A stretch of 64,000 bases of DNA. Origin: a bacterium (GTDB lineage Bacteria; Patescibacteriota; Minisyncoccia; Phycocordibacterales; Zambryskibacteraceae). Shown here piece by piece: positions 33,056 through 51,620 of the stretch; within the stretch, counting starts at the first letter, position 1; the number at the start of each line of letters is the position of its first letter. The position numbers were made by a program, and so were the translations under genes. The stretch lies in contig JAUSDP010000020.1 in NCBI GenBank assembly GCA_030650605.1, positions 13,486 to 77,485 on the forward strand, in the 5' to 3' direction. The notes beneath the pieces were generated by a model. The model was not told the DNA's origin. It made no database searches and saw nothing but the letters and a program-made list of their open reading frames with translations.

Positions 33056-33709
33056 TTACGACTGAATATTTTTACATTTTGGATATGCGTTACAACCCAA
33101 AAAGGTTTTATTGTTCTTGCTACTTAAGCGGGTTTCCATCTTTCCTTCGCCGCATTTGGAACAGGTTTCGCCATGACCTGGCAATGAATCAAACTGAGGG
33201 CGTTCTTTTTTAGCGTACCCTCCTTTTTCGCGCTTACTTTGAATGTGAGTACCATCAATTTCAAGCATGAGGGCGCGATCCACTACTTGCTGAACATATT
33301 TTTCAATTCCACTCATAAACGCTACAGGAGTCGTTTTTCCTTCTGCCACATTTTGCAATCCAAATTCCAATAAGGCGGTTCGCCCTGGATCCCCTAGGCC
33401 CTCATCAATAAAAGAATCCAACTCGATTGCCAATGGTGAGGCATCCAAATATTTTCCATCGCGAAGAACCAAACCATCCGCAACGACTTTTTCAATCACG
33501 TCAGGTCTGGTTCTTTCCGTACCCAAACCTTTTGTCTTCATTAAAATTGATCGCATCCGATCATCAGTGACGAATTTATGGACGCCAACCATGTCATCCA
33601 ATAGCGTCGCATCGGTATATCTTGAAGGCGGAGCGGTCTTTCTTGCATCTACCCGACCACCACGAACCGATACCTGTTGGCCGGCCTGAAATGGAAGTTG
33701 AGTGGCCAC
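33056..33709 (-). CDS. C-terminal fragment of a type IA DNA topoisomerase (Topo III-like) with a Zn-ribbon; GTG start right after a TAG
   Basis: KTAPPSRYTDATLL ... TKGLGTERTRPDVIEKV matches the PPxRYTEAxL ... GIGTPATRAxII region; C-terminal CSKCG ... CNAYPKC zinc ribbon. Confidence 0.6.
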   Translation of the reverse strand: MATQLPFQAGQQVSVRGGRVDARKTAPPSRYTDATLLDDMVGVHKFVTDDRMRSILMKTKGLGTERTRPDVIEKVVADGLVLRDGKYLDASPLAIELDSFIDEGLGDPGRTALLEFGLQNVAEGKTTPVAFMSGIEKYVQQVVDRALMLEIDGTHIQSKREKGGYAKKERPQFDSLPGHGETCSKCGEGKMETRLSSKNNKTFLGCNAYPKCKNIQS

Positions 33710-33715
33710 CTATTC

Positions 33716-33886
33716 AATCTCCGTACTTTTTTCAGGCTTTATCCTAGCGAAGTCGTATTTCACCAGATCAGGCGCTATTGACTCAACAAGGCTTTCTTGA
33801 TCAACCTCGGCAGTGCGAACATCTTGTTCGCCGTCAGCTCCAAAAACCAATGTTTTGTCGCTATTGGACGGTGTTATTGACATAGT
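33716..33886 (-). CDS. 57-aa ORF immediately upstream of the topo C-terminal fragment
   Basis: Not in the track; AAGGAATAACT-ATG RBS; ends in TAG directly followed by the GTG of the next ORF. Confidence 0.3.
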
Positions 33887-33892
33887 TATTCC

Positions 33893-34198
33893 TTAATGTG
33901 GATGGCTGTTTCTGGTTAGCTCGTCTCGTTGAACAAGTGCATTTTCAAATACTAAAACTTCGTTTTTCAATTTCTGAACAAAATGTTCTAGCCGGTTATC
34001 CTCGCTGAGCAAAAACAAAGAGAACCGTTCCAAACCTTTACGATCGGTTCTAATACCAATGTCTTCTTGATCTAATAGCTCCGATGCCTTCGATAAGAGA
34101 ATGCACTCATCTTCATCTGGCAAACGTTGCCGGAAATAGTTTTCCGCCGCCTGCTCAGAATGATAACGTTCCAAATCTTCGTATTGAATTTCATTCAT
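33893..34198 (-). CDS. hypothetical protein
   Basis: 101-aa ORF, 4-nt overlap with ardC. Confidence 0.4.
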   Translation of the reverse strand: MNEIQYEDLERYHSEQAAENYFRQRLPDEDECILLSKASELLDQEDIGIRTDRKGLERFSLFLLSEDNRLEHFVQKLKNEVLVFENALVQRDELTRNSHPH

Positions 34199-35172
34199 TT
34201 TGGGCTTATGGAAAACGTTTCTTCCTCATCCATTAGAGAAGAAATGCTGTCAAAATCAAAAGTAAAGTCGCTGAGATCAATTTCATTCATAGGAACGTAA
34301 TCGGGGTTATTTGTGAACTGCATCAAATAATCACTCGATTTTTCTGCCTCGGCCGCAGCTCTGAAGAAAACGTTTTTATCATTGTCGATCGCTTCCATCC
34401 AATCGCCGATATAACTTACGTGCTTATCGAGCTTATAAGAAACGCCAAAATCTGAGCATAAATAGACCGAAGTCAATTCTGCGACAAGTTCTTCTGCTGC
34501 ATAAGTTTTCATGTCACGATCCATGCGACCAGACGCCTTCGTCCAGTGAGCCATTTCATGTAGTAGGGTCGCGTAATATCCTTCCGTGTCATGAAATGAT
34601 TCTTTGGCTGGCATAGAAATCAAATCTTGACTCGGTATGTAACATGGGACATCTCTCATTCCAAACTCAAGGACGGCGCCAGATGCAGCGACCATCGCTT
34701 CAATTGCGTCATTTGAATGAATCTTAAGATCTGGAACGATAACCTCGGGCATGGAGGTCATTTGTTGAGCATTAAATACAGTGGCGTAAAAAGGACAAGG
34801 GCGATCGAGCTTCTTGTTTACGTAAACTGGCTTACCGGTTGCGGGATCGGTCTCATCAGTTTTGACACTTTTAGTGAACGACCAATATTCAATTGTTGTC
34901 CCCTTCTCTCCCTTTTTAACACTCACTTCAAGTTTTTTGGCTTGGTTGAAAGTCATCCAGCGAGAGTCGGTATAACCTCGCGCTAGAGCGACCATACCGA
35001 GCACAACTCGATTCCCTCCACGATAGCGCTTTCCGGTCGTCGGATTGAGTGGAGACATAACTGAAACAGCGCGTGCAGATGAAACGCTCCAATCCGGTTC
35101 CCAAGGCTTAAAGCCTAGGCTCAATTGATTAACAATTTCCTTGGAAAGGTTTTCGCGCAACTCTTTTGACAT
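34195..35172 (-). CDS. ardC: ArdC-family antirestriction / ssDNA-binding protein with a C-terminal zincin-like metallopeptidase
   Basis: N-terminal DUF1738-like region and C-terminal LLHEMAHWTKASGRMDRD (HExxH) as in ArdC; AGAGGA RBS. Confidence 0.8.
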   Translation of the reverse strand: MSKELRENLSKEIVNQLSLGFKPWEPDWSVSSARAVSVMSPLNPTTGKRYRGGNRVVLGMVALARGYTDSRWMTFNQAKKLEVSVKKGEKGTTIEYWSFTKSVKTDETDPATGKPVYVNKKLDRPCPFYATVFNAQQMTSMPEVIVPDLKIHSNDAIEAMVAASGAVLEFGMRDVPCYIPSQDLISMPAKESFHDTEGYYATLLHEMAHWTKASGRMDRDMKTYAAEELVAELTSVYLCSDFGVSYKLDKHVSYIGDWMEAIDNDKNVFFRAAAEAEKSSDYLMQFTNNPDYVPMNEIDLSDFTFDFDSISSLMDEEETFSISPK

Positions 35173-35383
35173 CACATCCTCTGTTTATTAATTTCGTATA
35201 TGTAATATTACACGGAAATTATAATAAAAGGAATTATGAAACGATACAAAATTAATTGGCGTACTAGCTACTCTACGAAATTCTATGGTGATTTTTTGTT
35301 TGGTTGCCGCTTCTCAAAAATTAATGCCTCACGGCCAATATAGCGAGATCGAGTTCCTACCTGCCGGCACCTTTAACTTCTTT

Positions 35384-35717
35384 TTCTCACCCCTGCACGC
35401 AGGGTATAACCATCCGAGCAACGTGTTGGTGGCACACGATCACTTCTCAACCCTGCACGCAGGGGGGATAACATGGCTGTCGGTGCTGGCGTCGTCATGT
35501 TTAATTTCTCACCCCTGCACGCAGGGGGGTAACAAACCGGTGTGGCACAACTCTTTACGTCTTCCATTCTCACCTCCGCACGCAGGGGGATAACAAGGTT
35601 AGTACAGTCGGTTGGTTTTCTGCCCTATTCTCACCCCTGCATGCAGGGGGATAACAGCATTGCAAATTGCCGGAGGATCGCCGGACCCGTTCTCACCCCT
35701 GCACGCAGGGGGATAAC
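35384..35717 (-). CRISPR. CRISPR array: 6 repeats of 27-29 nt (consensus GTTCTCACCCCTGCACGCAGGGGGATAAC on the plus strand) with 5 spacers of 32-33 nt; I-E-like hairpin repeat. Strand is uncertain: minus is inferred from the cas operon orientation and the degenerate distal repeat
   Basis: Repeats at 35384-35410 (degenerate, AGGGTATAAC), 35444-35472, 35505-35533, 35566-35594 (two substitutions), 35627-35655 (one substitution) and 35689-35717; spacers are unique. Confidence 0.85.
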
Positions 35718-35738
35718 TCTCATTATAACCTGATGATT

Positions 35739-36068
35739 TTAATCAATAATTTTGATGTCTTCACTTGTGCCAAGTTTTACATTACTATTTACGGTTAAAT
35801 ATTTTATTAGTTGTAGTCCGTGATTATCACAAACCTGTCTCGCATTTTGACCATGACTTGCAACAATAAAACCTGTTTCTGTTTTGGCAGCAAAAATGCA
35901 AATTGCCGAACATTCCGTATTTTTGATTTCATCCCAAATTTGCTTTGTTTTTCGTGAAGATAATTTCCAAACAAAAGTGCCTGGCCGAATCTCCAACATT
36001 ATCCGTTGCAGGTAACCAGTTAAACTTTTAGGGGCCTTTTTTATGTCCAAAACAACTAAACTAGTCAT
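35739..36068 (-). CDS. cas2: Cas2, I-E-like
   Basis: 109 aa; MTSLVVLD ... ETGF pattern aligns to I-E Cas2; 4-nt overlap with cas1. Confidence 0.85.
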   Translation of the reverse strand: MTSLVVLDIKKAPKSLTGYLQRIMLEIRPGTFVWKLSSRKTKQIWDEIKNTECSAICIFAAKTETGFIVASHGQNARQVCDNHGLQLIKYLTVNSNVKLGTSEDIKIID

Positions 36069-36889
36069 TTATCAGACCTCATTAAATGTTCGATAATATT
36101 AATAATTTTTGAAGCAGTGTTATCTCGCCTAAAGACATCTCTACACAACACTCGAATTCCAGATTCATTTACATTTATATTAGTTGAATATAATTCGATC
36201 GCAGCAGGAACAATTGTCTTAAATTTAATCGTGTCAGCAATATCAAATACAAATGATCGTGGATCGCCAGAATGAATGAACCCAATCGCCGGTGAATATC
36301 CAAGTGCAAGAATCGCAGCTTCGACCAATCCATAAAGCGCAGCGTTTGCTGTACTTATTGCGCGATTTAACGGATCTGACAACGAAGAACGTTGATCTCT
36401 TCCTAGCCATTTAACATTGTATCTTGCAGAAATTTCACGATACAAATCATAAACTTTTGCACCTTCGATCCCACGCAGTTGATCAATACTTCTTCCAGCT
36501 GGAGGTTCAACATCAAACATCTCCCGATAAATATTTCTCGCCATCTCCAAACGTCGCGATGGATCTAAATGAATGGAAGCTTGATGTAACAATTTTTGCG
36601 CTACAGCCCCACCTGGATTGCCAGCCGAATAACATCTAACTCCTGCCTCACCAATCCAAAGTATTAAACATCCCGATTCGGCACATGCCTTGACTGCGGC
36701 ATGTGTAACAACAGTCCCAGGTTCAATACAGATAACGCTTGTTGCACCGACAGGAAAATGTATTTTGCTATCGCCTTGTCGTAAAACGACCGCGTGCCCA
36801 TCAAGTTCAAGCACACCATATTCTGCATAAATAAAAGTTACCCGATCCACGATAGGGATCGGGTAATCTATCAACGAACGTCCACTCAA
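36065..36889 (-). CDS. cas1: Cas1 integrase, I-E-like
   Basis: 274 aa; long collinear similarity to E. coli Cas1 (GEAGVRCYSAG ... LRGIEGAKVY ... GFIHSGDPRSFVFDIAD). Confidence 0.9.
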   Translation of the reverse strand: MSGRSLIDYPIPIVDRVTFIYAEYGVLELDGHAVVLRQGDSKIHFPVGATSVICIEPGTVVTHAAVKACAESGCLILWIGEAGVRCYSAGNPGGAVAQKLLHQASIHLDPSRRLEMARNIYREMFDVEPPAGRSIDQLRGIEGAKVYDLYREISARYNVKWLGRDQRSSLSDPLNRAISTANAALYGLVEAAILALGYSPAIGFIHSGDPRSFVFDIADTIKFKTIVPAAIELYSTNINVNESGIRVLCRDVFRRDNTASKIINIIEHLMRSDK

Positions 36890-37602
36890 GCGATTAATTC
36901 CTTGGACATTACCCGATCAGTTTTTCTCCAATACGGCGGCCGGATACACGCCTGAACAGTGGCATAGGAAAATCCTGCTTTACCTGGCTCATCCAAAGGC
37001 AATACACGTAAGCGCCAATCATCTTCACGGTCATGTGATGACACATCAATGCTTGCTACACGACCGTAACCATTGCGTCCGACTTTGCCAATGTATTTAA
37101 TATGCTGAGTGAGATAATACTCAATGGCGTCAATGTCTCCAACGCCATACGCCGTAATATCACGGACCCAACGGCTTGCAGTCAACCATTGATAACCACG
37201 TTGTTGACCGCTAGCGGTTTTAATCCCAAACGTTTCAGGATCAATACCTCGCACGTTCCCATTTTTCAGAAAGCCTGAAACCCACACACCATCGGGCGTA
37301 TCTTCTGTATACAAATCCTTGAAGTACATCTCCGGATCAGATTTACGAATTTGATTCGACAGCATGATGTCACTCGATGCGGCCACAATCAATTTTGACG
37401 TTTTCCACACCCAGTCCTTGCCATCGGTGCGTGCAAGAAAATCTGACATATGCTGATCGGTCTTGGCCCAGCAATCATCCTCGCCAGCACGCTCCATTTC
37501 CTGCACGCTTGCATAGGCCAGAAGAGCATCCAGATGAATCGGATATTCCGAATCCATAAAAAGCGGCGAAGCAAGAGTGATCTTAACTTTAAAAGGCTGC
37601 AT
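36886..37602 (-). CDS. csf3: Cas5-group RAMP, Csf3-like
   Basis: N-terminal ASPLFMD ... HLD RAMP motif and C-terminal Gly-rich loop GKVGRNGYGRV; position matches csf3 in type IV-A; 4-nt overlap with cas1. Confidence 0.55.
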   Translation of the reverse strand: MQPFKVKITLASPLFMDSEYPIHLDALLAYASVQEMERAGEDDCWAKTDQHMSDFLARTDGKDWVWKTSKLIVAASSDIMLSNQIRKSDPEMYFKDLYTEDTPDGVWVSGFLKNGNVRGIDPETFGIKTASGQQRGYQWLTASRWVRDITAYGVGDIDAIEYYLTQHIKYIGKVGRNGYGRVASIDVSSHDREDDWRLRVLPLDEPGKAGFSYATVQACIRPPYWRKTDRVMSKELIA

Positions 37603-37631
37603 AAAAATGCTCCTGATTGAGGTGTTGATTT

Positions 37632-38846
37632 CTATCGAGCTAATTTTTTAGCAGCAGCTTTGGCTTCTTTTTCAAGTGCCTTTGCCGCCTTTTCTTCAGC
37701 TGCTTTCAGCGCTTTTTCTTCGGCTTTGCGCTCCTTATCAACCGCTTTGGCCGCTTTTTCTTCGTCAGTGGCAATCACTGGTGGCTTCATGATGGCGTCC
37801 AGACGCTCTCCACTCAATTCAGACGCAGCAATTTTCCACGCATTCAAATAGACAGCAATTGATGGATCAGCTTTGATCAACGAGTTATTGTTAAAAATCG
37901 TATCGGTCACATCAACATTGTCACCAGTATTAATCGCGATCGCCACATCATTGAGGCGAATACGGCCAAGTCCATTACGAGTTTGTCCACCGATGGACGT
38001 TTTTGCCAGTCCATCAAGACTTAACAAAAATAGACCAATTTGTGCATCGGTAACATCGGTCAATTCAACAGTAAAATCAAAATCAACGCCTGGATCTACA
38101 AATTCAAATGCACTCCACGCTTTAGTGCTGTTGCGACTTCCTTTTTCTTCTGCGTCCTTCGCTAGCTGATCCTCAATGATCAACCGCTGACGTGCATTAA
38201 ATTGAACTTCAAAGTCCGTTACAACACCTTCCATCCGATCTACATCAAGAAGTGCACTAACGTCATCGCCGCGTCGAAATGCCGCCCCGCGCGAAATATT
38301 CATGCCCGATGTTGCTTTCCCTACTCCCCGTGGGTGACCTACAGAAAAGCCAGATGATCGCAGACTATCCATGACGGGCACTGCATCAAGAACACGCATA
38401 CGACGACGCAACATACGCGGACCACCACCAAAAAGTCCAACATAAGGATGTGACGATACCTCCTTATATTCAGCAAACGTCAGATCGCGAGAATCGGGCT
38501 TTCCTGTCACAGCGCCGCAAGTAATTGCAGAGTACGTTTGCAAAGTGATCTTTTGATTCTTCTCACGAAGAACATTGACAAGAATTTGAGCACCCTGACG
38601 ACGCAAACGACCTGCAATATTATTCGCGGCAATGACAGCGACACCATAATCGAGTCCATCGACAGATCCAGGGGCAAAACGACGACGCTGAATACCGGCA
38701 CAGGCGATGCCTCCTTTGGTTCCGTTTTTAACAAGGCCATAGCCGGTTGAATCGCTTACTTCGTAGCGGAAGGTTTCTGGTGATGCGATGTGCAATGGAG
38801 ACAAAGTAGTCAAGATTGCGTGGATGGTGACTGATTTTTTGGACAT
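37632..38846 (-). CDS. csf2: Cas7-group RAMP, Csf2-like backbone protein, with an unusual Lys/Ala/Glu-rich C-terminal tail
   Basis: N-terminal TTLSPLHIASPE (Cas7 signature); about 350-aa RAMP body; C-terminal EEKAAKAVDKERKAEEKALKAAEEKAAKALEKEAKAAAKKLAR. Confidence 0.55.
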   Translation of the reverse strand: MSKKSVTIHAILTTLSPLHIASPETFRYEVSDSTGYGLVKNGTKGGIACAGIQRRRFAPGSVDGLDYGVAVIAANNIAGRLRRQGAQILVNVLREKNQKITLQTYSAITCGAVTGKPDSRDLTFAEYKEVSSHPYVGLFGGGPRMLRRRMRVLDAVPVMDSLRSSGFSVGHPRGVGKATSGMNISRGAAFRRGDDVSALLDVDRMEGVVTDFEVQFNARQRLIIEDQLAKDAEEKGSRNSTKAWSAFEFVDPGVDFDFTVELTDVTDAQIGLFLLSLDGLAKTSIGGQTRNGLGRIRLNDVAIAINTGDNVDVTDTIFNNNSLIKADPSIAVYLNAWKIAASELSGERLDAIMKPPVIATDEEKAAKAVDKERKAEEKALKAAEEKAAKALEKEAKAAAKKLAR

Positions 38847-38902
38847 GATATTAAGCTTTCTAGTTGAGTTAAATGAACAGCTAATAAATTACAAATACGG
38901 GA

Positions 38903-39670
38903 TTAATCACTGGTTTCTGCAGGTGTGAAATCATCGATACCGGCACCTGGGGTCAATAAGAATCGTAGTCCCCATGTTTCGCCTAGCGTCAAATTTCTCA
39001 AAAATTCAATTTCATTCTTAAATTGTTTCAATAGATCAGCATGTATTTCCGCTTTCGCTGGATCTGAAGGCATGTTGAGACGAAGCGTTCCATGTCCGAT
39101 TTCTTTCAAATCGGCAGACAAACGAAGAAATGGATGGACCAATGTTTTCGCCGTTGCTTCAAATCCAAACGCTTTACCAACCTGCTGACTGACCTCGACG
39201 GCCTGCATCAAAATGGCATGTCTGATTTTTACATCCCGCAGTCCAACCCGTACATAAAACAATTCGGGAGAGAAATTCACGGGCGCTCGCCATGCCATAT
39301 GTTGATTATTTGCCGTGGCATACACCGCCACAAAGGGTTCTTGCGGTGGATTAGTCAATGCGGAAGAAATTTCGAGCCACTTGCGAAATGGAATATAGGC
39401 AGACTTGGTAAATACGCCATATCCTGTTTCTTTCAATGCAGTTGCACTCATCAAAGTGGCGCAATATCCACACATCAAATCACTACCACGTGCAGCGAGA
39501 GACAAGTCATCCATGAAAGCTGCAGATACTGAGAACGGGCTAGACAGATCACCAACGGCAATATGCAATCCGCAAAAAGCACAGCAACCTTCTTTTTTGG
39601 AAGCAACCCCTTCAGGCGATTCACCTCGGGACTGCGTCACAATCACAGAGGAAGTTATAGTTAAGCTCAT
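38903..39670 (-). CDS. csf1: Csf1-like zinc-finger small subunit (Cas8-like)
   Basis: CCAFCG ... CGYC zinc finger; ATG overlaps the cas6 stop (ATGA) with GGAGGA RBS; position matches csf1. Confidence 0.5.
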   Translation of the reverse strand: MSLTITSSVIVTQSRGESPEGVASKKEGCCAFCGLHIAVGDLSSPFSVSAAFMDDLSLAARGSDLMCGYCATLMSATALKETGYGVFTKSAYIPFRKWLEISSALTNPPQEPFVAVYATANNQHMAWRAPVNFSPELFYVRVGLRDVKIRHAILMQAVEVSQQVGKAFGFEATAKTLVHPFLRLSADLKEIGHGTLRLNMPSDPAKAEIHADLLKQFKNEIEFLRNLTLGETWGLRFLLTPGAGIDDFTPAETSD

Positions 39671-40416
39671 CGTTCTATCCTCCGACGAATCAATCCATAT
39701 CCACGCGAACGCAGTTTTCCTGCCATCCAAGGACCATTTAGTGAAATGTTGGTACAAAAGGTAATATTCTTAAAAGCCGCTGCAGGAATCCCGGGCTTAA
39801 TCGGAATTGGTACTGACTCTCCTTCTAAAATATCCAAAATAAGACTGTCGTCAGATGGGATACCATGCTCTAGAAGATGTGGCGTACCAAGGTCTTCATC
39901 GAGCCACCGAGCCATAGAGATCAGACCGTTTAAAATTTCTTTTTTAATTTCAGGCGCTCGCTCTTGAGCCGTCACACCAAAAAAGTGAGAAAGCTTCGCC
40001 GGTTTTTTTGACACGATCAATTTACGGATGGAGTAAAGGATCGGTTCGCTCATTTGAAGCTCACAATCACCGTGTTTAAATTCCATACGGTATGGCCCAC
40101 CGAGATGTTTGGACAGTGCTGTCACGATCGACGCAGTATGTTCTGCCAATAAGTCCGTGCCAGATTTGCCAATACCATAGATGCGAATAAATCCGTTTCC
40201 ACCATCAAAAATAATGCTTGGAGGTAGACCGAAACCTTCTCCCTTGCGATCATCTCCATAACGACCCTGGAGTGTTTTACCATCTGGGCCGCGAGCGAAA
40301 ATAGCAGGATCAATTGATCGACCATCACAAGCCTTGGCCACTAACGATCGGGCATCTTCAGGATAGATCTGCTGCCCTTTTAGTACTTCAGGAAATAACA
40401 AAAGTTCTTTATACAT
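39667..40416 (-). CDS. cas6: Cas6 endoribonuclease (Cas6e/Csf5-like)
   Basis: C-terminal Gly-rich loop AGKLRSRGYGLI resembles Cas6e GxxKSMGCGLL; first gene of the operon. Confidence 0.6.
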   Translation of the reverse strand: MYKELLLFPEVLKGQQIYPEDARSLVAKACDGRSIDPAIFARGPDGKTLQGRYGDDRKGEGFGLPPSIIFDGGNGFIRIYGIGKSGTDLLAEHTASIVTALSKHLGGPYRMEFKHGDCELQMSEPILYSIRKLIVSKKPAKLSHFFGVTAQERAPEIKKEILNGLISMARWLDEDLGTPHLLEHGIPSDDSLILDILEGESVPIPIKPGIPAAAFKNITFCTNISLNGPWMAGKLRSRGYGLIRRRIER

Positions 40417-40574
40417 GTTGTGTGTCCAATTATTTGTTTAGTTGGTGTAACGAATATTACTCTACAAAAAAAATATAGCAAGTAGGAATTTAATTTTAAT
40501 AAGTAAATACACTTGATGAAATTTTCTTTATTTGGGCTATAATTTGCCCATATTAACCAATGCCGAGGATTCTC
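40417..40574. promoter_or_regulatory. divergent promoter region between the cas operon (minus) and dinG (plus)
   Basis: AT-rich 158 bp; TATAAT at about 40538 on the plus strand; TTGCTA-16-TAATAT on the minus strand. Confidence 0.35.
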
Positions 40575-43130: not shown

Positions 43131-43463
43131 ATGAATCAGAAAGCTTCCATGAAAAACTCCTTCATACCCTCATTCCAGTGTGAATCTGCCCTTGAAGACA
43201 TGGGTAGTAAGTTGCGCATTGCGCGACTTCGCCGTAACGAGTCGGTGCAAATCGCCGCGCAACGTCTTGGCATCTCTCGCGCCAAGTATCAACGGCTTGA
43301 AAATGGCGACTCGAACGTATCCGCTGGCGCATTGATTGAAGCGCTCATCCTGTACGGCTTTGAATCGCAGGTATTTGCCCTGGCGGACCCAGATTTAGAT
43401 GAAACTGGAAAAAGGTTAGAAAAACAATTGCTCCCAAAACGAGGACGTACTCATGCAAAGTAA
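43131..43463 (+). CDS. hipB: HipB-like XRE HTH antitoxin (start uncertain)
   Basis: LRIARLRRNESVQIAAQRLGISRAKYQRLENG is an XRE HTH; overlaps the downstream hipA by 11 nt. Confidence 0.7.
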   Translation: MNQKASMKNSFIPSFQCESALEDMGSKLRIARLRRNESVQIAAQRLGISRAKYQRLENGDSNVSAGALIEALILYGFESQVFALADPDLDETGKRLEKQLLPKRGRTHAK

Positions 43464-44775
43464 ATCGAAATTAATAGAAACACCACTCTATGTTTACAAG
43501 ACGGGCGAGGATCTCCCTATATTAATTGGAGAACTTGGCTTTATTTCCGACACGCAGAATGAGTTCCTTGCACAATTTAATTACGATGCGTCGTACATAA
43601 TTCGACCTGATGCATTCGCAATCGATCCGTTGAATATGCCGTTGGCTGCACCAACCAAAGAATACAGCACCACAAATAGGTATCACGTTCTTGGAGCATT
43701 GTTTGACGCAGCTCCAGATGCTTGGGGCCGTAAGGTAATCAGTGCGAAAGTTGGCGTTTCCCAGGCATCAGAAAAAACCATTCTGTTAAAGGGAAACGGA
43801 ATGGGTGTCGGTGAGCTTTTCTTTTCAGCATCCCTGCTTGAAAGTAACCCCACTTTTCTTAAAATTCCAACTATTGACCAAATTGAGCAACTGGCCAGCC
43901 CGATCACGCAAGTAGATGAAGGGGCTAAATTTAATCCAGCTTGGGAAAATCTATTGATCAGTTCCTGGGACATTGGCGGGGCCAGGCCGAAGGCAATTGT
44001 TTTGGACGAATCGGGCGAGCACTGGATTGCAAAATTTCCTCGCAAGGGTGAAACATATGATCGCCAACGCGTCGAATGGGCGAACCTTGAAATGGCGGCC
44101 GACATTGGCATGGATGTACCGGAACGCAGGCTTATCGAGACGCAATATGGCGCCGTATTGCTGGTCAAACGATTTGATCGCAGCTTGGACAAGAAAAGCC
44201 ACTATCTGAGCGCAGCATCAGTCATCAGTCCGTCGCCGACAATTGATAAACGTCAAATCGATGCTCCAATCGGACAGGCAACGTTTTCCTATGCACGTAT
44301 CGCCGACACGATACAACGAATCTCAAATTATCCTAGTCGGGATCTGCAGGAACTTTATGCAAGAATGGTTTTCAATGTTCTTACCCACAATACGGACGAC
44401 CATCTAAAAAATACAGGCTTTCTAAGAGTAAAAGATGCACGGGATCCATATGCATATCGACTGTCGCCATTGTTCGATGTGGTGACCCAGGAGGGATCTC
44501 TAAAGCACATGCTACAGATCGGGAAAGCTGGGCGCGAGAGCACTATAGAAAATGCACTCTCCAACGTGCGTCGCATGAGAATAAAAGAGGACGCGGCGCA
44601 AAAAATCGTGCAAATAGCGCGATCTGTGTTTGATCGCCGAGCAGAATATTACGACAGAGCCGGATTGCAATCAGATGAAGTTGAGGCATTGGAAAGGTGT
44701 TTCACATGGCTGAGATCTGCTCGGGTTGCGGATGTTGAAATTGAAGACGAAGAGAGTGGATCGGCACCGCGATAG
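43453..44775 (+). CDS. hipA: HipA-family serine/threonine kinase toxin
   Basis: DIGGARPKAIV and VLTHNTDDHLKNTGF motifs (HipA P-loop-like and catalytic motifs). Confidence 0.85.
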   Translation: MQSKSKLIETPLYVYKTGEDLPILIGELGFISDTQNEFLAQFNYDASYIIRPDAFAIDPLNMPLAAPTKEYSTTNRYHVLGALFDAAPDAWGRKVISAKVGVSQASEKTILLKGNGMGVGELFFSASLLESNPTFLKIPTIDQIEQLASPITQVDEGAKFNPAWENLLISSWDIGGARPKAIVLDESGEHWIAKFPRKGETYDRQRVEWANLEMAADIGMDVPERRLIETQYGAVLLVKRFDRSLDKKSHYLSAASVISPSPTIDKRQIDAPIGQATFSYARIADTIQRISNYPSRDLQELYARMVFNVLTHNTDDHLKNTGFLRVKDARDPYAYRLSPLFDVVTQEGSLKHMLQIGKAGRESTIENALSNVRRMRIKEDAAQKIVQIARSVFDRRAEYYDRAGLQSDEVEALERCFTWLRSARVADVEIEDEESGSAPR

Positions 44776-44789
44776 TTTATCGTGCGTAT

Positions 44790-44880: not shown

Positions 44881-45030
44881 GTTTGCATTGTGGGCTCATT
44901 CTATCTATATTTATCAAATACGAGAAACGATGTAACGAAAAAGTCAAAAATAATCATTATTTCTCAAAAATTAGAAATAATTGTGAACATCGCTCATAAC
45001 TTATTAAAGATTTATCAGATTTAGACAATT

Positions 45031-45336
45031 ATGGCTGGCAAATTCCCTAAAATTACCAATCCTCCATCACCTCAAATTTCCTCAGCGCAGGAATTAGGGC
45101 TATGGATACGCGCACGCCGCATTGCGGCCGGCATTCGTATTGATGATGCCGCCGCACTTTCTAACGTGTCGGTGCAATTGTTGTCGGATTTGGAAAATGG
45201 CAATCGCTCGGTCGGTATCGATAAAGTGTTTGCGGTAATCAATTGCTTAGGGCTGGACCTGATGGTAAAGCCACGCGGTGAAGATCTCGACGACAGAGAT
45301 GCAGAAACTGAGGCTGACAATGCTCCCAAAAACTAA
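45031..45336 (+). CDS. hipB: HipB-like XRE HTH antitoxin (second copy)
   Basis: LWIRARRIAAGIRIDDAAALSNVSVQLLSDLENG. Confidence 0.7.
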   Translation: MAGKFPKITNPPSPQISSAQELGLWIRARRIAAGIRIDDAAALSNVSVQLLSDLENGNRSVGIDKVFAVINCLGLDLMVKPRGEDLDDRDAETEADNAPKN

Positions 45337-46696
45337 CGAACTGATTATCTGGATCGAAAATATTCGGGTAGGTGCGCTTGAGGTCAATGAGCTGGGGCAA
45401 TTCCGACTGAATTATGAGTCCGCCTGGGTCGCATCCCCCACTGGCTATCCAATTTCACCAACACTTCCTCTTGCAGGCAGCGAGGATTCTGCCGAAATAC
45501 ACTCCGCAAAAGTACGTTTCTTCTTTTCGAATCTATTGCCAGAGGGAAAAAGCCTTGACGAAGCCGTCCTGGCGAATGGACTATCGAAGTCAAATGTCTT
45601 CGGCCTGCTTCACGCCTTGGGCAAAGAGAGTGCCGGCGCATTAATGCTCTTGCCTCCAAGTCAGCACCCAGAAACGCTTACTAGCGATAGTGATTTGCGC
45701 GAAATCACCAATGCTGAACTTTCCGAGCGAATTCGGGCGATGCCCAACGTCCCCTTTTCCGTTTGGGATGGCAAAGTGCGTATGTCCATCGCCGGATACC
45801 AAGCCAAACTGGCCGTCCACAAGACTCAAGATGGACGCCTGTGGTTAGCGAGCGGGAAGAGCGCTTCCACGCACATTTTAAAGCCTCAGGCGAGCGCATT
45901 GAATGAATGCCAAGTCGCCAATGAGTATTTCTGCATGCGCTTAGCCGCTATGTCAGGCATCGAGTCGGCCGAGGTTGATATTCTGCGCGTGCCAGAACCT
46001 ATCTTAGTGATCAAACGATTTGATCGCCAGCTGATCAGTGGCGTTGCACGCCGCTTGCATATCATTGATGCCTGCCAGGCGCTCAACAAGTCACCAGAAC
46101 AAAAATATGAACGCAATTTCGGAGCCGGCGAACACGTAAAACACATCCGGGATGGCGTCTCGATTAAAAACTTGTTCTCGATCACCGACTTAGCAACCAA
46201 TAAGGCCGATATGACCTTGCGCCAGTTGCGCTGGCTTATTTTTCAGCACTTGATCGGCAACTCGGATGCACACGGAAAAAACATGTCGTTTTACGTGGCG
46301 CGTGATGGGCTGAAAATGGCTCCAGCCTACGATCAACTCAGTGTAACTATCTACCCGACAATCAATCATGAATTTGCCATGGCAATTGGTGATGAGTTCC
46401 TGGAAGAGGCAATTCGGGCTTACCAGTGGGCCGACTTCGCCATTCAAGTCGGACTCAACCCTGGCTTGGTCGCACGCACGATTAAACATGTCGCTAACAA
46501 AGCAAATCGTGCGCTGCCAACTCTCTTGGCAGATCCGATATTGACTGATGTTGAGAAGAACTTTCTCAACAGGTTGGCGAATCAAATCCAGGTGCGAGTT
46601 GAAAAGTTTTTGGAAATTGCAAAAATTCTTCCTGGCGTTGCTCGCGATATCGCTGATGAAGACGTTGCTGTAACTCTTACTGATATTTGCAAATAA
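45320..46696 (+). CDS. hipA: HipA-family kinase toxin (second, divergent paralogue)
   Basis: SIAGYQAKLAV and LIGNSDAHGKNMSF motifs; GAGG RBS before MLPKTNE; overlaps hipB by 17 nt. Confidence 0.85.
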   Translation: MLPKTNELIIWIENIRVGALEVNELGQFRLNYESAWVASPTGYPISPTLPLAGSEDSAEIHSAKVRFFFSNLLPEGKSLDEAVLANGLSKSNVFGLLHALGKESAGALMLLPPSQHPETLTSDSDLREITNAELSERIRAMPNVPFSVWDGKVRMSIAGYQAKLAVHKTQDGRLWLASGKSASTHILKPQASALNECQVANEYFCMRLAAMSGIESAEVDILRVPEPILVIKRFDRQLISGVARRLHIIDACQALNKSPEQKYERNFGAGEHVKHIRDGVSIKNLFSITDLATNKADMTLRQLRWLIFQHLIGNSDAHGKNMSFYVARDGLKMAPAYDQLSVTIYPTINHEFAMAIGDEFLEEAIRAYQWADFAIQVGLNPGLVARTIKHVANKANRALPTLLADPILTDVEKNFLNRLANQIQVRVEKFLEIAKILPGVARDIADEDVAVTLTDICK

Positions 46697-46704
46697 AAAA
46701 ATGA

Positions 46705-46730
46705 ATTCAAAATTTTGAATCCTTCAATCG
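46705..46730 (-). terminator. AT-rich palindrome (TTCAAAATTTTGAA core), candidate minus-strand terminator
   Basis: Perfect 14-bp palindrome flanked by an A-run on plus and a T-run on minus; follows the 92-aa minus-strand gene. Confidence 0.3.
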
Positions 46731-46754
46731 CAAACGTTTCTGAACATTGAAATA

Positions 46755-47033
46755 TCAACGTGGCAATTGAATCGGAATGCCATATCCCATCTTAAATCGA
46801 TCTCGAATCGTTGGTTCACGTTTCAGTATAGATCGCCATTCAGCATCATCCTCAATCAGCCAGAAATACCGTTGAGCGGAAACGAAGTCACACCCAGTTT
46901 GCTCATGAAAATGAATCGCTGCGTCTTCACATCCCCACCGCGTGTCGTGGTACAACGGATCAAAATATTTCCGTTCAAGATAGCGTCTCAAATTACGCAA
47001 GAGTAGTCTTACTGACTTATGATTTCTCATCAC
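46755..47033 (-). CDS. hypothetical protein
   Basis: 92-aa ORF downstream of the GHKL gene. Confidence 0.35.
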   Translation of the reverse strand: MMRNHKSVRLLLRNLRRYLERKYFDPLYHDTRWGCEDAAIHFHEQTGCDFVSAQRYFWLIEDDAEWRSILKREPTIRDRFKMGYGIPIQLPR

Positions 47034-47087
47034 TCAAATACCTTCTAATAACCGTCACTCACGAAAATTATCAAAGCTGCGATTCAC

Positions 47088-48803
47088 CTATTGACGTGCA
47101 TTCTTTTCTTGCACTCTTGTGGGCAATTTTAGAGCAATCTTCGCTATTTGTTTCGCGTGGTATCCAACTTCTTTTGACGGCACAATGGCAATCTTTGCCA
47201 ATCCTGATAAGTAATGCCGCATCATCCCATTAACGATGAATCCAAATTGGTATTTCAGAATACAGGAGTGGAAGCGTGCATAGAAATTTCGGTCGTGCGG
47301 ATGGCTCTCAATACTACTTTCATCATGGCAGTATTCGTGTGCCATTAATGCCACCAATACGTGCGGGCCGCTCTCACGAATGCCCCTCAATTCCTTTCGG
47401 TTAATCGCAATATAAGAATGTCCATCAGTCCAAGCGTTCATTTGATTCGATACGCCTATGATTATTCGCCGCTTCTTGCGCTCAAAAAGAACTGACATGT
47501 CCCTGTTGTATCGGTTAAGTCCAACAAGAACAAGTTTTTCTTCGGCAGTTAATTCGCTTTCCTTCACAAGCGTATTTAGACCATCCATCTCATGAACGAG
47601 GTCCGAAAATAACACGAAAGTTGGACTAGCGTTTGTGCCGCTTAATGCCCTGAACAAAGACGTAATGACATGTTCAAAATTATCTTCATTACTTTCAAGC
47701 CCACATGTGCGCATGAATTCCGGCATGATGACATTGGCACGACCCAGTTGTTGCACCCGCTCTGCCACCATCGAATGGCGCCCGTTATAGAGCGTATAGA
47801 TATTATTGATAAACAGATCTTTCGGACTACGATTCTCTCCAAATATGTTTGGAATAAACCGGACTGTTTCAATATTTTTACATATGTTATGGTTGAATCT
47901 CTCCCTACTGCCTAAAATCATTTTCATCAACAGATAACACTCGTTGCTATCCAATTTTTTTGCACTGAGAATTCGATTGTTAAATTGTGTTTGTAGCGTT
48001 GCTAGAATGCATTTCCAAACGTGACACTCGCGTCTAAGAATCTCGTTGCGTGCCATATTGACAGTCAGAGGATGCTTAGTAACGATCGTTCCTGTAAGGC
48101 CAAACGTGGATCCCGGATAATAAGTAACGAAGGCACCTCGGTTATATACTTTCAAATTACATTGATCCGAATCAAATTTGTACCAGGCATTCTCATCCTC
48201 CACTGACCACTCAATTTCTAAAGGCGGAGTGTTAATCTGCATCCCATTGACGAAAACTGGTACAGACACGAATTTGACCATCGCTTTGATTGAATTGCCA
48301 TAGTCGCATTCCTCATCAAATCCAGAGAAATCGTGCTGATCATAAAACTCACCTTTGATCACGCACCCAGGCGCTGCGTCCTTGAACGTTGTCAACTCAT
48401 AGCCAAGATCACCACGCCGATGAATATCAACGTGCATGCCGAAAAACCCACTACGCCAATCCGTTTTGGCGAACGACATAATTTGTCCGCGCCCAATGCG
48501 AAATTTGCCGAAATAGGCATCATCTTTTTTGTGCGGCGTCCCAAATATTTCGAAGAAAGTCTCAATTTCTTCTCTCGAAGAAAACCCCTTCCCATTGTCC
48601 GCGATTGAAAATCCAACTTCGTTAATAAGCACGTCTATTCGAGTTGCCCCGGCATCTACTGAATTCATAATCAATTCGCACAAGGCTTTACTGCTACTTC
48701 CAGCCTGTTCTTTGATCAACGTCAGAATAATGGCTGGGTGAACGCCAAATTGTCGCGCTTCAGAAGTATTGTTGACGGTGGCAAGACTGCTTGATTTAGA
48801 CAT
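47088..48803 (-). CDS. GHKL-superfamily (Hsp90/MutL/histidine-kinase-like) ATPase
   Basis: N-box ELIMNSVDAGAT and G1 box ADNGKGF; ATG at 48803 overlaps the upstream stop by 8 nt (ATGTCTAA). Confidence 0.7.
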   Translation of the reverse strand: MSKSSSLATVNNTSEARQFGVHPAIILTLIKEQAGSSSKALCELIMNSVDAGATRIDVLINEVGFSIADNGKGFSSREEIETFFEIFGTPHKKDDAYFGKFRIGRGQIMSFAKTDWRSGFFGMHVDIHRRGDLGYELTTFKDAAPGCVIKGEFYDQHDFSGFDEECDYGNSIKAMVKFVSVPVFVNGMQINTPPLEIEWSVEDENAWYKFDSDQCNLKVYNRGAFVTYYPGSTFGLTGTIVTKHPLTVNMARNEILRRECHVWKCILATLQTQFNNRILSAKKLDSNECYLLMKMILGSRERFNHNICKNIETVRFIPNIFGENRSPKDLFINNIYTLYNGRHSMVAERVQQLGRANVIMPEFMRTCGLESNEDNFEHVITSLFRALSGTNASPTFVLFSDLVHEMDGLNTLVKESELTAEEKLVLVGLNRYNRDMSVLFERKKRRIIIGVSNQMNAWTDGHSYIAINRKELRGIRESGPHVLVALMAHEYCHDESSIESHPHDRNFYARFHSCILKYQFGFIVNGMMRHYLSGLAKIAIVPSKEVGYHAKQIAKIALKLPTRVQEKNARQ

Positions 48804-49500
48804 AGGCGTAAAGTTTAAAAAAGAAGGGGATGTTCTTCGTTTCGCATGCGCTACGTAATGCACTGACCCAACTCATTTTCATTGGCCGCGCATGGGGGCC
48901 AGATTCACCTCCAACCACGATCCAATCCAATGTTTCACCGAATTGACCATGTGTCTCAGGCAGAGATACGGGACCAAGTAAGGGCTCCATACTCAACCAA
49001 CGCGTTGCAGCTGGCGTACCCAATAACTTTGCTATATCGCGGTCTGCTTCATCTTGGTTAACCACAGAGATACCCAACCAAACATTCGAATAGCCACATC
49101 CCCAATCTGCCGGAAGCATGTCTGCCACATTACCGATGCGCTTGGTGAGAATCAACCAATCCAGATTTGGTGTTGATCTGACGAGTGCCCAAAGATCATC
49201 GCGCCAGGTTGTATCAACTCGATTATCAAATACGTCGGAGAGTGAGGCGCAAAAAACACGACGCTTACGACCATGCATCGCAAAAAAATCGGGATGCCCG
49301 GAATTCCAACGAATTGGTAACTTCCAGTTTGCGGCGCTGGTACGTTGACGAGTTTCCTTCGGGCCCCAGACTATCTTCATAGTGCGTGATGGAGTGCTTA
49401 CTTCTGCATAGCAGTGATCGCATCCAGGCGAAATCTTGGAGCATCCAATCCACGGATTGAAAGTGCTATCTGTCCAAGAAATATTTGTTTCAGCGGCCAC
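48796..49500 (-). CDS. phage Gp37/Gp68-family protein (DUF5131, three-Cys motif)
   Basis: ISWTDSTFNPWIGCSKISPGCDHCYAE matches the family signature WTxxTWNPxxGCxxxSxGCxxCYA. Confidence 0.75.
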   Translation of the reverse strand: MAAETNISWTDSTFNPWIGCSKISPGCDHCYAEVSTPSRTMKIVWGPKETRQRTSAANWKLPIRWNSGHPDFFAMHGRKRRVFCASLSDVFDNRVDTTWRDDLWALVRSTPNLDWLILTKRIGNVADMLPADWGCGYSNVWLGISVVNQDEADRDIAKLLGTPAATRWLSMEPLLGPVSLPETHGQFGETLDWIVVGGESGPHARPMKMSWVSALRSACETKNIPFFFKLYAYV

Positions 49501-49553
49501 TGTTTTTCCTAATGACGTAGGGGGGTCGGAGTAATCAAATTATTGATTAAAGC

Positions 49554-49988
49554 TTATGCAGCTTTCAGGGTGACTTTTAATTCGATGCCATTCGCCGCTG
49601 GTAATTTGATGACGTCACCTGGTTTAGCGTGGATGTGATGCCTACCTTTTGAAAGCACCGTTCCTTGTTCCAGTATTTGATATTCGATGACGGCATCAAC
49701 GTCAACAGTGCGTGCGCTTTCGTCTTGAACGTATATGACCTTACCGGACATTCCAGATTCAATTTTTACCTGCTTATATTGAACTTCACCAAGATTCGAA
49801 TTGACTTCGTTGGCAATACTTTGTGATGCTATCGCCCCAAAGAACGCTTCACTCCCTGGCCGGGTGGTCACTTCGAATTGTTTTATTGGTTCCTTGCCTT
49901 TGTTGGCGGTAATTTGGAATTGCACACCATCTTGTGCACTTGCTGCGACTGCAAAAAAACAAAAAAACACAGAAATTAACTTTTTCAT
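49554..49988 (-). CDS. periplasmic/secreted protein
   Basis: Signal peptide MKKLISVFFCFFAVAASAQ. Confidence 0.45.
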   Translation of the reverse strand: MKKLISVFFCFFAVAASAQDGVQFQITANKGKEPIKQFEVTTRPGSEAFFGAIASQSIANEVNSNLGEVQYKQVKIESGMSGKVIYVQDESARTVDVDAVIEYQILEQGTVLSKGRHHIHAKPGDVIKLPAANGIELKVTLKAA

Positions 49989-50099
49989 CTTAGCTCCGTT
50001 TTACCCCAGGGCTCGCGAGGTGCCGATTGAGCGATTGCTCGGAATTTTTCACAGCGCCTTTTCATAATGTGTCCGTAGCGTCCCTATTCATACTGAGCT

Positions 50100-51620
50100 C
50101 TATTGCTTCATACGAACAACATTACGTTTCTCAATCGACTCACCTTCATCCGTACTTTCTGGCTTACTACCTTCGGATACGTGCCATCCAGGATCAATTG
50201 TTTCCGTCGTATTTGACTTGAATATATCAAGGCCAGCTTCAGCTTCTATTTGAATAGAGTTGTATCGATAGTCTGGATAGAACTGAGACAAGTAGCGACG
50301 ACAAATGGAGTCATATACTTTCGCTTCGTCGCCAGTTAGCGCGCTCTTCGGTGGGACATTGCCAGTGGGAATAATGGCGTGATGCGCAGAACCTTGATCA
50401 ATTAATTTTTGTGCATTCCAGCATCCTGAGACCTGAGACAAATCAGCTTTTGCTGTCAAGCCAGCTAATATTGGTGCTATATTCTTCAAGATATCAGTTG
50501 AATCGGCGTGTTGTGACTCAGGCACATGCCGCGCATCGGTTCCGATGTAACTAATCGCCTTATGTTTTTCATAGAGTCCTTGCGCGGCCTTGGCTACTTG
50601 TTTCGCGGTCATACCGTGTTTCTTACCCACGGCTGAGCCCAGCGCACTCCCAGAAAAAGGCAAAGGTGGCGGCTGTTTCTTCTCTTCGATAGTGGCTCGC
50701 GTGATAGTCGTAGCCACGTGGGCAGCTAGAATATTTTTTAGAATAGCCTCGGCAACTTGCTTGTCGATAATTCGTCCATGCGCATCGATACCGAGCATGC
50801 TTCCACCTTCTTTACGCGACTGCCAGGCCAATTCGTGCCCACTCTCCAACGTGATAACGGGCACGTAATAGTCTTGCTTCACGAATTTTTGAATATCAAG
50901 CGTTCGTTTGACGACGAGTCGTGTCACTGGCGTGCGCACACGCCCCACAGGAACAACCGTCTTGGCCGATATTGAATAAGACCTAGAACCTGCCATGCCT
51001 ATCATCCAATCAGCCTTAGCTCGGCACTCGCCAGCAAAACGGCCTTGAACAAATTCAGACTCTCCATTCGAGCGACGCGGGGCATCTATAACGCGACGCA
51101 AGGATTTATCGTCCAGACTGGTAATCAGTACACGCTCAACAGGCTTTTGCGAGCCGTCAGGATTTATTCCGGCCCACTCAATGAGTTCGTCGGCCAAATA
51201 TTGCCCTTCGCGGTCAATATCTCCCGCGTTGACGATAATTTTGGCGTCTTTTAAGAGCTTCGTCACAATCGCCAATTGCGGCATCGGCACAGGATCCCCG
51301 CTACGACTCAGCTTAATGCGTCCTTTTTCATCACGCTCAGACTTTGGACGTTTAATCCATTTCGAGTCTTCCACCATTAAATAAGGTATCGCTTCTTTCG
51401 CGAAAAATTTTCCCTTGAGTGCTTCTGGTAAGTAGGCATCAGGTTCAGCTTGCTCAACCAAGTGCCCTATCGCATGCGTGACAATATCGCCGTTCTTCAA
51501 CAGGTAATAGCCTGGGAACCGTTTATCAACACCGAAATATTCTGCGAGGGCTTTTGCCACAGACGGTTTTTCTGTGAGCCAAGTTCTTGTCACCATTAGA
51601 TTAGGCTTCTCCGCAGACAA
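50100..51620 (-). CDS. N-terminal 506-aa portion of a type IA DNA topoisomerase (Topo III-like): Toprim plus catalytic-Tyr domains, lacking the C-terminal third
   Basis: LMVTRTWLTEKPSVAKALAEYFG (Toprim start), NAGDIDREGQ, AISYIGTDARHV (active-site Tyr region), HHAIIPTGN; ends where the 33056-33709 fragment begins. Confidence 0.7.
   Translation of the reverse strand: MSAEKPNLMVTRTWLTEKPSVAKALAEYFGVDKRFPGYYLLKNGDIVTHAIGHLVEQAEPDAYLPEALKGKFFAKEAIPYLMVEDSKWIKRPKSERDEKGRIKLSRSGDPVPMPQLAIVTKLLKDAKIIVNAGDIDREGQYLADELIEWAGINPDGSQKPVERVLITSLDDKSLRRVIDAPRRSNGESEFVQGRFAGECRAKADWMIGMAGSRSYSISAKTVVPVGRVRTPVTRLVVKRTLDIQKFVKQDYYVPVITLESGHELAWQSRKEGGSMLGIDAHGRIIDKQVAEAILKNILAAHVATTITRATIEEKKQPPPLPFSGSALGSAVGKKHGMTAKQVAKAAQGLYEKHKAISYIGTDARHVPESQHADSTDILKNIAPILAGLTAKADLSQVSGCWNAQKLIDQGSAHHAIIPTGNVPPKSALTGDEAKVYDSICRRYLSQFYPDYRYNSIQIEAEAGLDIFKSNTTETIDPGWHVSEGSKPESTDEGESIEKRNVVRMKQ

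Follow-up and report, generated by a model that had tools for sequence, protein, structure and literature searches.

Type IA topoisomerases of conjugative plasmids such as IncP-1, called TraE or TopB, are made as one polypeptide of about 650-750 amino acids (aa). To our knowledge, natural type IA enzymes consisting of two polypeptides are known only as archaeal reverse gyrases. Cargo hotspots between core genes are also familiar, for instance in the variable regions of integrative and conjugative elements (ICEs) of the SXT family and in the defence hotspots of P2 and P4. Reverse gyrases of two polypeptides are described in Nanoarchaeum equitans and Methanopyrus kandleri, and the M. kandleri enzyme is broken off the boundary between the helicase and topoisomerase domains (PMC8185306). 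Furthermore, a neighbourhood in which a topoisomerase IA gene is followed by ArdC-N is conserved on plasmids and conjugative elements (Krishnan, Burroughs, Iyer, Aravind 2018; PMC6222260). The locus studied here lies in a stretch of 64,000 nucleotides (nt), hereafter the window, from contig JAUSDP010000020.1 (positions 13,486 to 77,485) of a bacterium of the Zambryskibacteraceae (Patescibacteriota), where two open reading frames (ORFs), topN and topC, encode the N- and C-terminal parts of an enzyme like topoisomerase III (Topo III). The comparisons presented below make it quite likely that TopN and TopC are two subunits of a naturally split Topo III-like enzyme of conjugative elements.

Compared with TraE and plasmid TopB, the enzyme is likewise a Topo III-type type IA enzyme of a conjugative element, adopts the Topo III fold in a structure model and has its closest annotated relatives among them, TopN being about 34% identical to annotated TraE genes (N part). 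It differs in that two genes (498 + 217 aa) encode it, with the split past the GW motif, and in that it falls in a large clade distinct from the full-length plasmid clade. With the split reverse gyrases it shares the condition of a natural type IA topoisomerase made of two separately encoded polypeptides. These, on the other hand, are archaeal, chromosomal, ATP-dependent and each confined to one lineage, while TopN/TopC is a bacterial mobile-element Topo III that has no helicase module, is broken at another site and extends over more than 100 protein clusters. The open-access literature text yielded no account of a plasmid or ICE Topo III that is split or fissioned.

An earlier note on this DNA, written from the sequence alone, had described two minus-strand ORFs as complementary Topo III-like halves in N-to-C order, and the Pfam, NCBIfam and structure alignments agree with it. 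TopN contains the Toprim domain, the active-site tyrosine region and the HHAIIPT motif, and ends 27 residues past GW, while TopC contains PPSRYTDATLL, GLGTERTRP and, at its end, a C4 zinc ribbon. In Pfam, TopN matched Toprim and positions 9-299 of the 411 in the Topoisom_bac profile, and TopC matched positions 299-410 of the same profile plus Zn_ribbon_Top1. The NCBIfam topB model TIGR01056 was covered by TopN from 3 to 451 and by TopC from 458 to 643, with scores (288 and 109 bits, respectively) that are both far under its cut-off of 515.75. Concerning the E. coli Topo III structures, their residues 2-457 were matched by TopN residues 12-490 and their residues 463-611 by TopC residues 4-151. 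The check for contiguous coverage that the note had proposed therefore came out in its favour, with about 5 Topo III residues left uncovered between the two alignments and no overlap. Since Pfam, NCBIfam and structure alignments all show TopN and TopC covering Topo III in this way, the two proteins are adjacent, non-overlapping halves, and by these alignments their adjacency as halves of one type IA core is beyond chance.

The N-terminal ORF does exist at 50100-51620, as the note had it, but translation likely begins at the ATG at 51596 (MVTRTW..., which the homologues P0001 and P0002 share) and not at the TTG at 51620. An alignment of TopN was built with 18 short proteins and 5 full-length ones (23 members), and the Toprim Glu, the DxD and the active-site Tyr are unchanged throughout it. 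In the numbering of the 506-aa ORF these catalytic residues are E17, D134/D136 and Y358, the last of which (KAISYIGTD) has its aligned counterpart in the E. coli Topo III Tyr (LITYPRSD). The core motifs PPxR(Y/F)T(E/D)A(T/S)L and G(I/L)GT..TR were found in TopC only and are invariant among 4 TopC sequences. The four core domains do not stand on one polypeptide, and the core is shared by two ORFs that lie 16.4 kb apart. The C-terminus of TopC varies among lineages: the TopC of the relative L099 (11524-12066) has 180 aa and a translation without the Cys-rich zinc-ribbon motif, and that of L098 (12870-13754) has 294 aa. This variation indicates that the zinc ribbon is not fixed in the small subunit.

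An AlphaFold2 prediction was run on an artificial fusion of TopN and TopC (direct join), not on the complex, with an alignment of 32 rows that included natural full-length relatives. The model reached a mean predicted local distance difference test score (pLDDT) of 88 and a predicted template modelling score of 0.82, and its pLDDT fell below 50 in two stretches only, 482-499 (the TopN tail and the junction) and 663-670 (the zinc-ribbon linker). Superposed on E. coli Topo III 1d6m, it gave a template modelling score of 0.89 and a root-mean-square deviation of 3.3 Å. Near the break, TopN closes with two long strands and a short helix, and TopC opens with a strand (513-522) followed by a helical region. 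The fused model is a complete canonical Topo III toroid. The low confidence of residues 482-499 at the junction suggests that the break sits in a disordered acidic loop, and the model would imply a large composite interface between TopN and TopC.

The split is not peculiar to the window. A search with TopN returned 1166 significant homologues, and length statistics were taken from the best 120 (94% to 34% identity): 107 of them measure 468-530 aa, against 11 full-length proteins (635-702 aa) and 2 shorter fragments. All 18 short proteins in the alignment stop 20-40 residues past GW. To judge from these homologues, a short TopN is the rule, and it extends over more than 100 protein clusters with identities as low as 34%. 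The close stand-alone homologues of TopC have 215-217 aa. A TopC profile search of 1.8 billion representative proteins found, among the best 150 matches, a few dozen proteins that are short, at about 160-290 aa, and start at the profile start; the other matches in this set were mostly full-length topoisomerases, matched at about residues 460-690. A megablast of window 49000-52500 and 30000-54000 against PLSDB gave no match, so that database holds no near-identical reference plasmid. When genome contigs were scanned with the TopN alignment, the matches listed included only chromosomal TopB genes with 31-37% identity and the canonical TYPRTD pattern, which served as outgroups. The scan of metagenome contigs with the TopC alignment found two loci, L100, a distant topoisomerase with adjoining N and C parts that is probably a single gene, and L101, with a weak TopC match (23% identity).

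The gene order of the relatives shows the same division. L001 (TopN 85% identical to that of the window) has topN-ardC-orf104-orf50-topC with a gap of 1.6 kb between the halves, and L008 (68%) has topN-orf240-ardC-orf99-orf54-topC-orf97-LPD1 with a gap of 2.3 kb. More distant relatives present topN, three ORFs, ardC, orf201, topC and, farther on, LPD1 (L010, 50%, gap 3.0 kb); topN, four ORFs and topC (L097, 43%, gap 3.5 kb); and topN, two ORFs, topC, one ORF and LPD1 (L098, 36%, gap 1.3 kb). In L099 (38%) there is no intervening gene, and topN and topC overlap in ATGA (gap -4 nt). A stand-alone topC was thus found downstream of topN in each relative with sufficient downstream sequence, namely these six.

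These arrangements bear on the explanation that the earlier note preferred, in which an intact plasmid topB was recently interrupted by a 16.4-kb defence/anti-defence module that left two inactive fragments. The halves indeed lie on the same strand, in the correct order, bracketing mobile-looking cargo, and 14.8 kb were gained between them relative to L001. Nevertheless, the block cannot be what split the gene, since L001 is split at the same place without the defence block and L099 is split with no insert at all; the related replicons that the note wanted compared thus show the two-gene arrangement without the insert. Cargo-free relatives that are split at the same residue, together with the short length of 107 of the 120 best homologues, leave a recent interruption with hardly any credibility.

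All three complete Cupriavidus plasmids with a split TopN (NZ_CP038637.1, NZ_OP484953.1 and NZ_AP025174.1) carry one topN and one topC each, at distances of 36, 41 and 65 kb and on opposite strands, with identities to the window of 43-45% for TopN and about 36% for TopC. Each half keeps its own synteny there: topN is preceded by the strawberry-notch helicase and two small ORFs, and topC is followed by two small ORFs and the LPD1 protein. RefSeq names both products 'DNA topoisomerase'. A fourth Cupriavidus plasmid, NZ_CP080768.1, presents a full-length relative of 655 aa (P0077). Across the relatives, the TopN/TopC identities to the window drop in parallel (85/78, 68/57, 50/35, 45/36, 43/36, 38/31 and 36/34%), which is expected if the halves are inherited and constrained as a pair.

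Selection was measured as the ratio of nonsynonymous to synonymous substitution rates (dN/dS) against the closest relative, L095/L096 (one JGI metagenome), where dS is 1.0-1.6 and synonymous sites are near saturation. The ratios were 0.036 for topN, 0.022 for topC and 0.037 for ardC, and 0.084 and 0.29 for the 101-aa and 57-aa ORFs that lie between ardC and topC. In more distant relatives synonymous sites are saturated, and the protein identities are 68-85% for TopN and 57-78% for TopC. No internal stops were found in topN or topC in the 4 lineages compared. Hence, judging by substitution patterns, both halves are functional genes under strong purifying selection. Such ratios in both halves, with uninterrupted frames in 4 lineages, speak further against a recent interruption.

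They also bear on the second possibility raised in the note, a decayed duplicate, by which two flanking copies of topB would each have lost the opposite half and would survive as pseudogene remnants. Degeneration of a tandem duplicate is a conceivable route to the original fission, and it would explain why ardC lies between the halves, ardC being the known immediate downstream neighbour of plasmid topoisomerase IA genes (PMC6222260). As a description of the present state, it is contradicted by the lack of residual overlap and by the strong purifying selection (dN/dS 0.02-0.04), and each half is present once and intact in all relatives. For the origin, L099 with its ATGA overlap offers a simpler account. 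Complementary decay is consequently very improbable.

Regarding the origin of the split, a neighbour-joining tree of the N parts was rooted on chromosomal TopB; it carries no support values, and the event count taken from it is provisional. The clade of full-length plasmid enzymes appeared as sister to one large, almost wholly split clade, inside which three full-length lineages are nested. One of these is P0048 (678 aa, L102), whose backbone, Sbn-top-106-73-151-IcmS-407-238-TraW, contains a single topoisomerase gene and is the backbone of L099 with its overlapping topN/topC. This common backbone indicates that the one-gene and two-gene forms are interchangeable orthologues. The topology would correspond, provisionally, to one fission and three re-fusions.

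The two proteins could also have separate functions without reassembling, for example TopN nicking or binding DNA alone and TopC binding single-stranded DNA through its zinc ribbon together with ArdC. In the window the halves belong to different operons, with topC embedded in that of ardC; Cupriavidus has them on opposite strands, separated by tens of kb, and no topC was seen near topN in L011 and L012, all of which would suit such a division of labour. On the other hand, the halves co-occur in every checkable replicon and diverge in parallel, and fused and split forms swap in the same backbone. Moreover, TopN has all the catalytic residues but not the PPxRYT and GLGTExTR motifs, which TopC carries, and the fused model closes into the complete canonical toroid. 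Independent roles are therefore unlikely, and a split enzyme of two subunits accounts better for these features.

The gene that follows topN in the conserved backbone is ardC, which also lies between topN and topC in L001, L008, L010 and L095. The earlier note had counted ardC as cargo; it was right that a defence block was added between the halves in comparison with close relatives, but by its conservation ardC, together with the two small ORFs, is backbone and not cargo. Downstream of TopN, the next conserved gene to follow is ardC, in agreement with the published neighbourhood; there the topoisomerase is a single gene with ardC after it, whereas here ardC and two small ORFs stand between the halves and topC comes last, in the order ardC-orf101-orf57-topC. 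A stretch of about 80 nt upstream of ardC (L001 11524-11604, L095 3810-3894) has been kept despite saturated synonymous sites. With its near-palindrome, this region is a probable promoter or operator of the ardC-to-topC operon. Scans for consensus promoters and terminators around both halves gave counts at or below shuffle expectation, and the operons were defined without them.

The junction of the small ORF with topC is very tight. As the note had observed, the GTG of topC directly follows the TAG of the 57-aa ORF, and the two are in the same frame; stop and start adjoin (0 nt) in the window and L095, a spacer of 1 nt separates them in L001 and L008, and in L010 an ORF of 201 aa extends 4 nt into topC. 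Homologues of the 57-aa ORF share the motif DGxQ(D/N)V..(A/S)EVD. The closeness of stop and start with an unconserved frame points to translational coupling of the small ORF with topC rather than to read-through, and the 57-aa ORF may be a coupling ORF or a small partner protein. In split-intein pairs, the first product ends in an N-intein (about 100 aa) and the second starts with a C-intein (about 35 aa). Covalent joining after synthesis by such a split intein, by read-through or by frameshifting might be suspected from the 57-aa ORF in frame with topC across a single TAG (window and L095) and from the 4-nt overlap of the L099 halves. There is no room for a split intein, because the TopN tail extends only 16-27 residues past the Topo III alignment and TopC is aligned from residue 4; the frame between the small ORF and topC is not conserved, with the 1-nt spacer in L001 and L008; and whole genes lie between the halves, which in Cupriavidus are on opposite strands. 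Covalent joining is thus extremely unlikely, and the two products would assemble non-covalently.

The added DNA forms a variable cargo slot of 14.84 kb, compared with a topN-ardC spacer of 25 bp in L001. In blastn, window 51989-50099 corresponds to L001 9606-11498, and window 35256-32852 to L001 11524-13912. In L095, window 44793-43037 (hipBA pair 1) corresponds to 1982-3729 at 86%, and window 35257-28000 matches at 81%; the CRISPR-Cas (repeats that are clustered, regularly interspaced, short and palindromic, with their associated proteins) block 35258-43036 (7.8 kb) is missing from L095, where hipBA adjoins ardC. The right-hand cargo edge, 35256/35257, is identical in both comparisons. The added DNA therefore sits in the topN-ardC spacer and outside coding sequence, a further argument against an interrupted topB. 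L001 has 0 genes in the slot, L008 has 1, L010 has 3, L095 has at least 6 and the window has about 17. The upstream cargo of L095 is different (MarR and PhD/DUF6036), apart from the hipBA pair common to the window. hipBA pair 2 has no counterpart in the available part of the L095 contig, and the presence of only the first pair there suggests that the cargo accreted stepwise. The coordinates of all the features are collected in Table 1.

Table 1. Features of the split topoisomerase locus in the window, and the topoisomerase halves of one Cupriavidus plasmid.
Feature	Coordinates	Strand	Basis or remarks
topN, N-terminal subunit (498 aa)	50100..51596	-	Pfam Toprim + Topoisom_bac, E. coli Topo III alignment
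topC, C-terminal subunit (217 aa)	33056..33709	-	Topoisom_bac + Zn_ribbon_Top1, E. coli Topo III alignment
57-aa ORF, stop abutting topC start	33710..33883	-	homologues of 50-57 aa in L001, L008, L095
101-aa ORF between ardC and topC	33893..34198	-	homologues in L001, L008, L095
ardC (ArdC-N single-stranded DNA-binding domain + zincin metallopeptidase)	34195..35175	-	domain matches
Conserved ardC upstream region, near-palindrome TTTCCGTGTAATATTACATATACGAAA	35176..35256	-	alignment of window, L001, L095, L008
Variable cargo slot, topN stop to ardC upstream region	35257-50098	.	blastn vs L001, L095/L096
Type IV-A1 CRISPR-Cas locus	35381..42872	.	NCBIfam, PADLOC, array
CRISPR array, 6 repeats	35381-35717		
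cas2e, I-E-type	35739-36068	-	
cas1e, I-E-type	36065-36889	-	
csf5, csf1, csf2, csf3	36886-40416	-	
dinG/csf4	40560-42872	+	
hipBA pair 1 (helix-turn-helix protein 110 aa; HipA 440 aa)	43131..44775	+	domain matches; adjoins ardC in L095
hipBA pair 2 (helix-turn-helix protein 101 aa; HipA 472 aa)	45031..46696	+	domain matches
DUF5131 + GHKL ATPase pair	47088..49500	-	DUF5131 8.6e-76; HATPase_c_3
144-aa protein, hydrophobic N-terminus	49554..49988	-	MKKLISVFFCFFAVAASAQ...; no Pfam/PADLOC match
109-aa ORF, conserved topN upstream neighbour	51601..51930	-	no Pfam match
LPD1-domain polyvalent-type protein (776 aa), topC downstream neighbour	30381..32711	-	position kept in L008, L010, L095, L098, Cupriavidus plasmid
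Strawberry-notch-type helicase + N6 methylase region (1773 aa), upstream of topN module	55253..60574	-	position kept in L008, L011, L094, L097, L099, L102
Topoisomerase halves of NZ_CP038637.1	12887-14314 and 55655-56293	opposite strands	

Read along the minus strand, the cargo of the window consists of the 144-aa protein, DUF5131 and GHKL, a 92-aa ORF, hipBA-2, hipBA-1, dinG/csf4, csf5-csf1-csf2-csf3-cas1-cas2 and the array. The earlier note had listed ardC, a type IV CRISPR-Cas system with dinG, two hipBA pairs and the GHKL/DUF5131 pair in the interval; these are all present, the CRISPR-Cas system being of type IV-A, but it had overlooked cas1, cas2, the 6-repeat array and the 144-aa protein. 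The latter probably bears an N-terminal signal peptide and is secreted. The DUF5131 gene (48796-49500) overlaps the start of the GHKL ATPase gene (47088-48863, 591 aa). In PADLOC, the DUF5131 protein matches the candidate defence families PDC-M41B and PDC-M30B, and no PADLOC model matched its GHKL partner.

The slot resembles the SXT, P2 and P4 hotspots in being a fixed intergenic site with different defence or toxin-antitoxin cargo in each relative, and it differs from them in lying between the halves of one enzyme. With only a handful of relatives, the topN-ardC spacer is not established as a general hotspot. The note's statement that no recombinase is visible at the junctions held good, since no recombinase domain other than Cas1 was found in the interval. 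The search that it had proposed for direct repeats or att-like sequences there came out negative: neither direct nor inverted repeats flank the cargo, its modules or the halves above shuffle level, except for the CRISPR repeats and short chance pairs, and the best junction match, of 10 nt, was equalled or beaten in 67 of 500 shuffles. The TopN tail (KPESTDEGES) resembles the last residues of the 57-aa ORF (KPEKSTEIE), a likeness that was considered as an att site or duplication and rejected as chance on the same shuffles and on its absence in L001. The junction analysis thus gives no sign of transposition or site-specific integration as far as the sequence can tell, and the missing target-site duplication, att-like repeat, terminal inverted repeat and recombinase count once more against an interrupted topB. 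The cargo would probably have entered by recombination between related elements through the conserved flanks.

Concerning the CRISPR-Cas locus, the type IV-A call comes from NCBIfam equivalogs for csf1-csf4 over their cut-offs; csf5 is under its NCBIfam cut-off, yet it matches the PADLOC typeIV_Cas6 models. The cas1 and cas2 genes sit directly between csf3 and the 6-repeat array of the type IV-A1 locus. In type IV loci, adaptation genes are reportedly almost never present, and type I-E Cas1-Cas2 are reported to be borrowed in trans (PMC7038947). A linked IV-A/Cas1-2e unit is consequently unusual and bears on the hypothesis of borrowing in trans. The array gave no blastn match against PLSDB, neither a protospacer nor a related array.

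On the other side of the module, the stop of the 109-aa ORF lies 4 nt before the topN start, and ORFs of 99-110 aa occupy this position in L001, L008, L010, L096 and the Cupriavidus plasmid. The backbone order of the element family is strawberry-notch helicase/methylase, topN, topC, LPD1 protein, IcmS-like protein and TraW. The minus-strand regions 21065-32711 and 52244-60574 of the window also encode an SNase, a SocA/Panacea protein, DUF3717, TraW (NCBIfam conj_TraW) and RdgC. Going by their domain content, the flanking genes resemble a region that serves anti-restriction or establishment in a conjugative element.

The history of the locus could be traced as follows. One gene fission would have occurred at the base of the large clade, in the disordered acidic loop after GW, and the simplest surviving form would be the topN/topC overlap in an ATGA stop/start. 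Genes would then have gathered between the halves, giving in the subclade of the window ardC-orf101-orf57 with topC last and translationally coupled, and finally a 14.8-kb mosaic of defence modules would have been added in the lineage of the window, between the topN stop and the ardC promoter. In the assembled enzyme, TopN would contribute the Toprim domain, the catalytic tyrosine domain and the rest of the arch. By analogy with solved type IA enzymes, TopC would contribute most of domain IV (PPxRYT, GLGTExTR) and one beta strand (model 513-522) in the domain II arch, besides the zinc ribbon.

Several points weigh against an enzyme of two subunits descended from one fission. The tree behind the event count carries no support values, and the fusion prediction is evidence of the compatibility of the halves and not of their binding. 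The halves belong to different transcription units in the window and are far apart in Cupriavidus, arrangements that would make balanced expression harder than for adjacent genes. In addition, the Burkholderia contigs L011 and L012, available as contigs only, have no topC within 10 kb downstream of topN.

The fission could itself be adaptive, in which case topoisomerase activity would need both the helicase/methylase-topN and the ardC-topC units, or the subunits would reach the recipient separately, or be assembled separately there, in company with ArdC and the polyvalent proteins; this is a rather doubtful proposal. Both units probably lie in the early, anti-restriction part of the element. 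If the fission were adaptive, a DNA-cleaving enzyme would be active only while the incoming single strand establishes, and the tolerated gap would have become a protected landing pad for defence cargo.

Overall, the locus probably represents a widespread, anciently fissioned, heterodimeric Topo III of conjugative elements, in which the gap between the subunit genes serves as a cargo slot. For annotation, this means that ORFs of about 500 aa and about 210 aa named "DNA topoisomerase" on plasmids and ICEs should not be taken for pseudogenes or insertion scars, and that the distance between the halves is uninformative on gene integrity. For enzymology, it offers a large natural Topo III family in which the cut always takes one fixed loop, lying between arch and C-terminal core, with re-fused controls in the same backbone. 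Such a family is a ready-made system for asking whether covalent continuity is needed for type IA gate opening, and it could be used to probe the role of plasmid TopB/TraE. For the biology of mobile elements, a poorly known family of conjugative elements is seen to use the topN-ardC spacer as a slot for cargo, and here that spacer carries a type IV-A1 CRISPR-Cas system with its own Cas1-Cas2.

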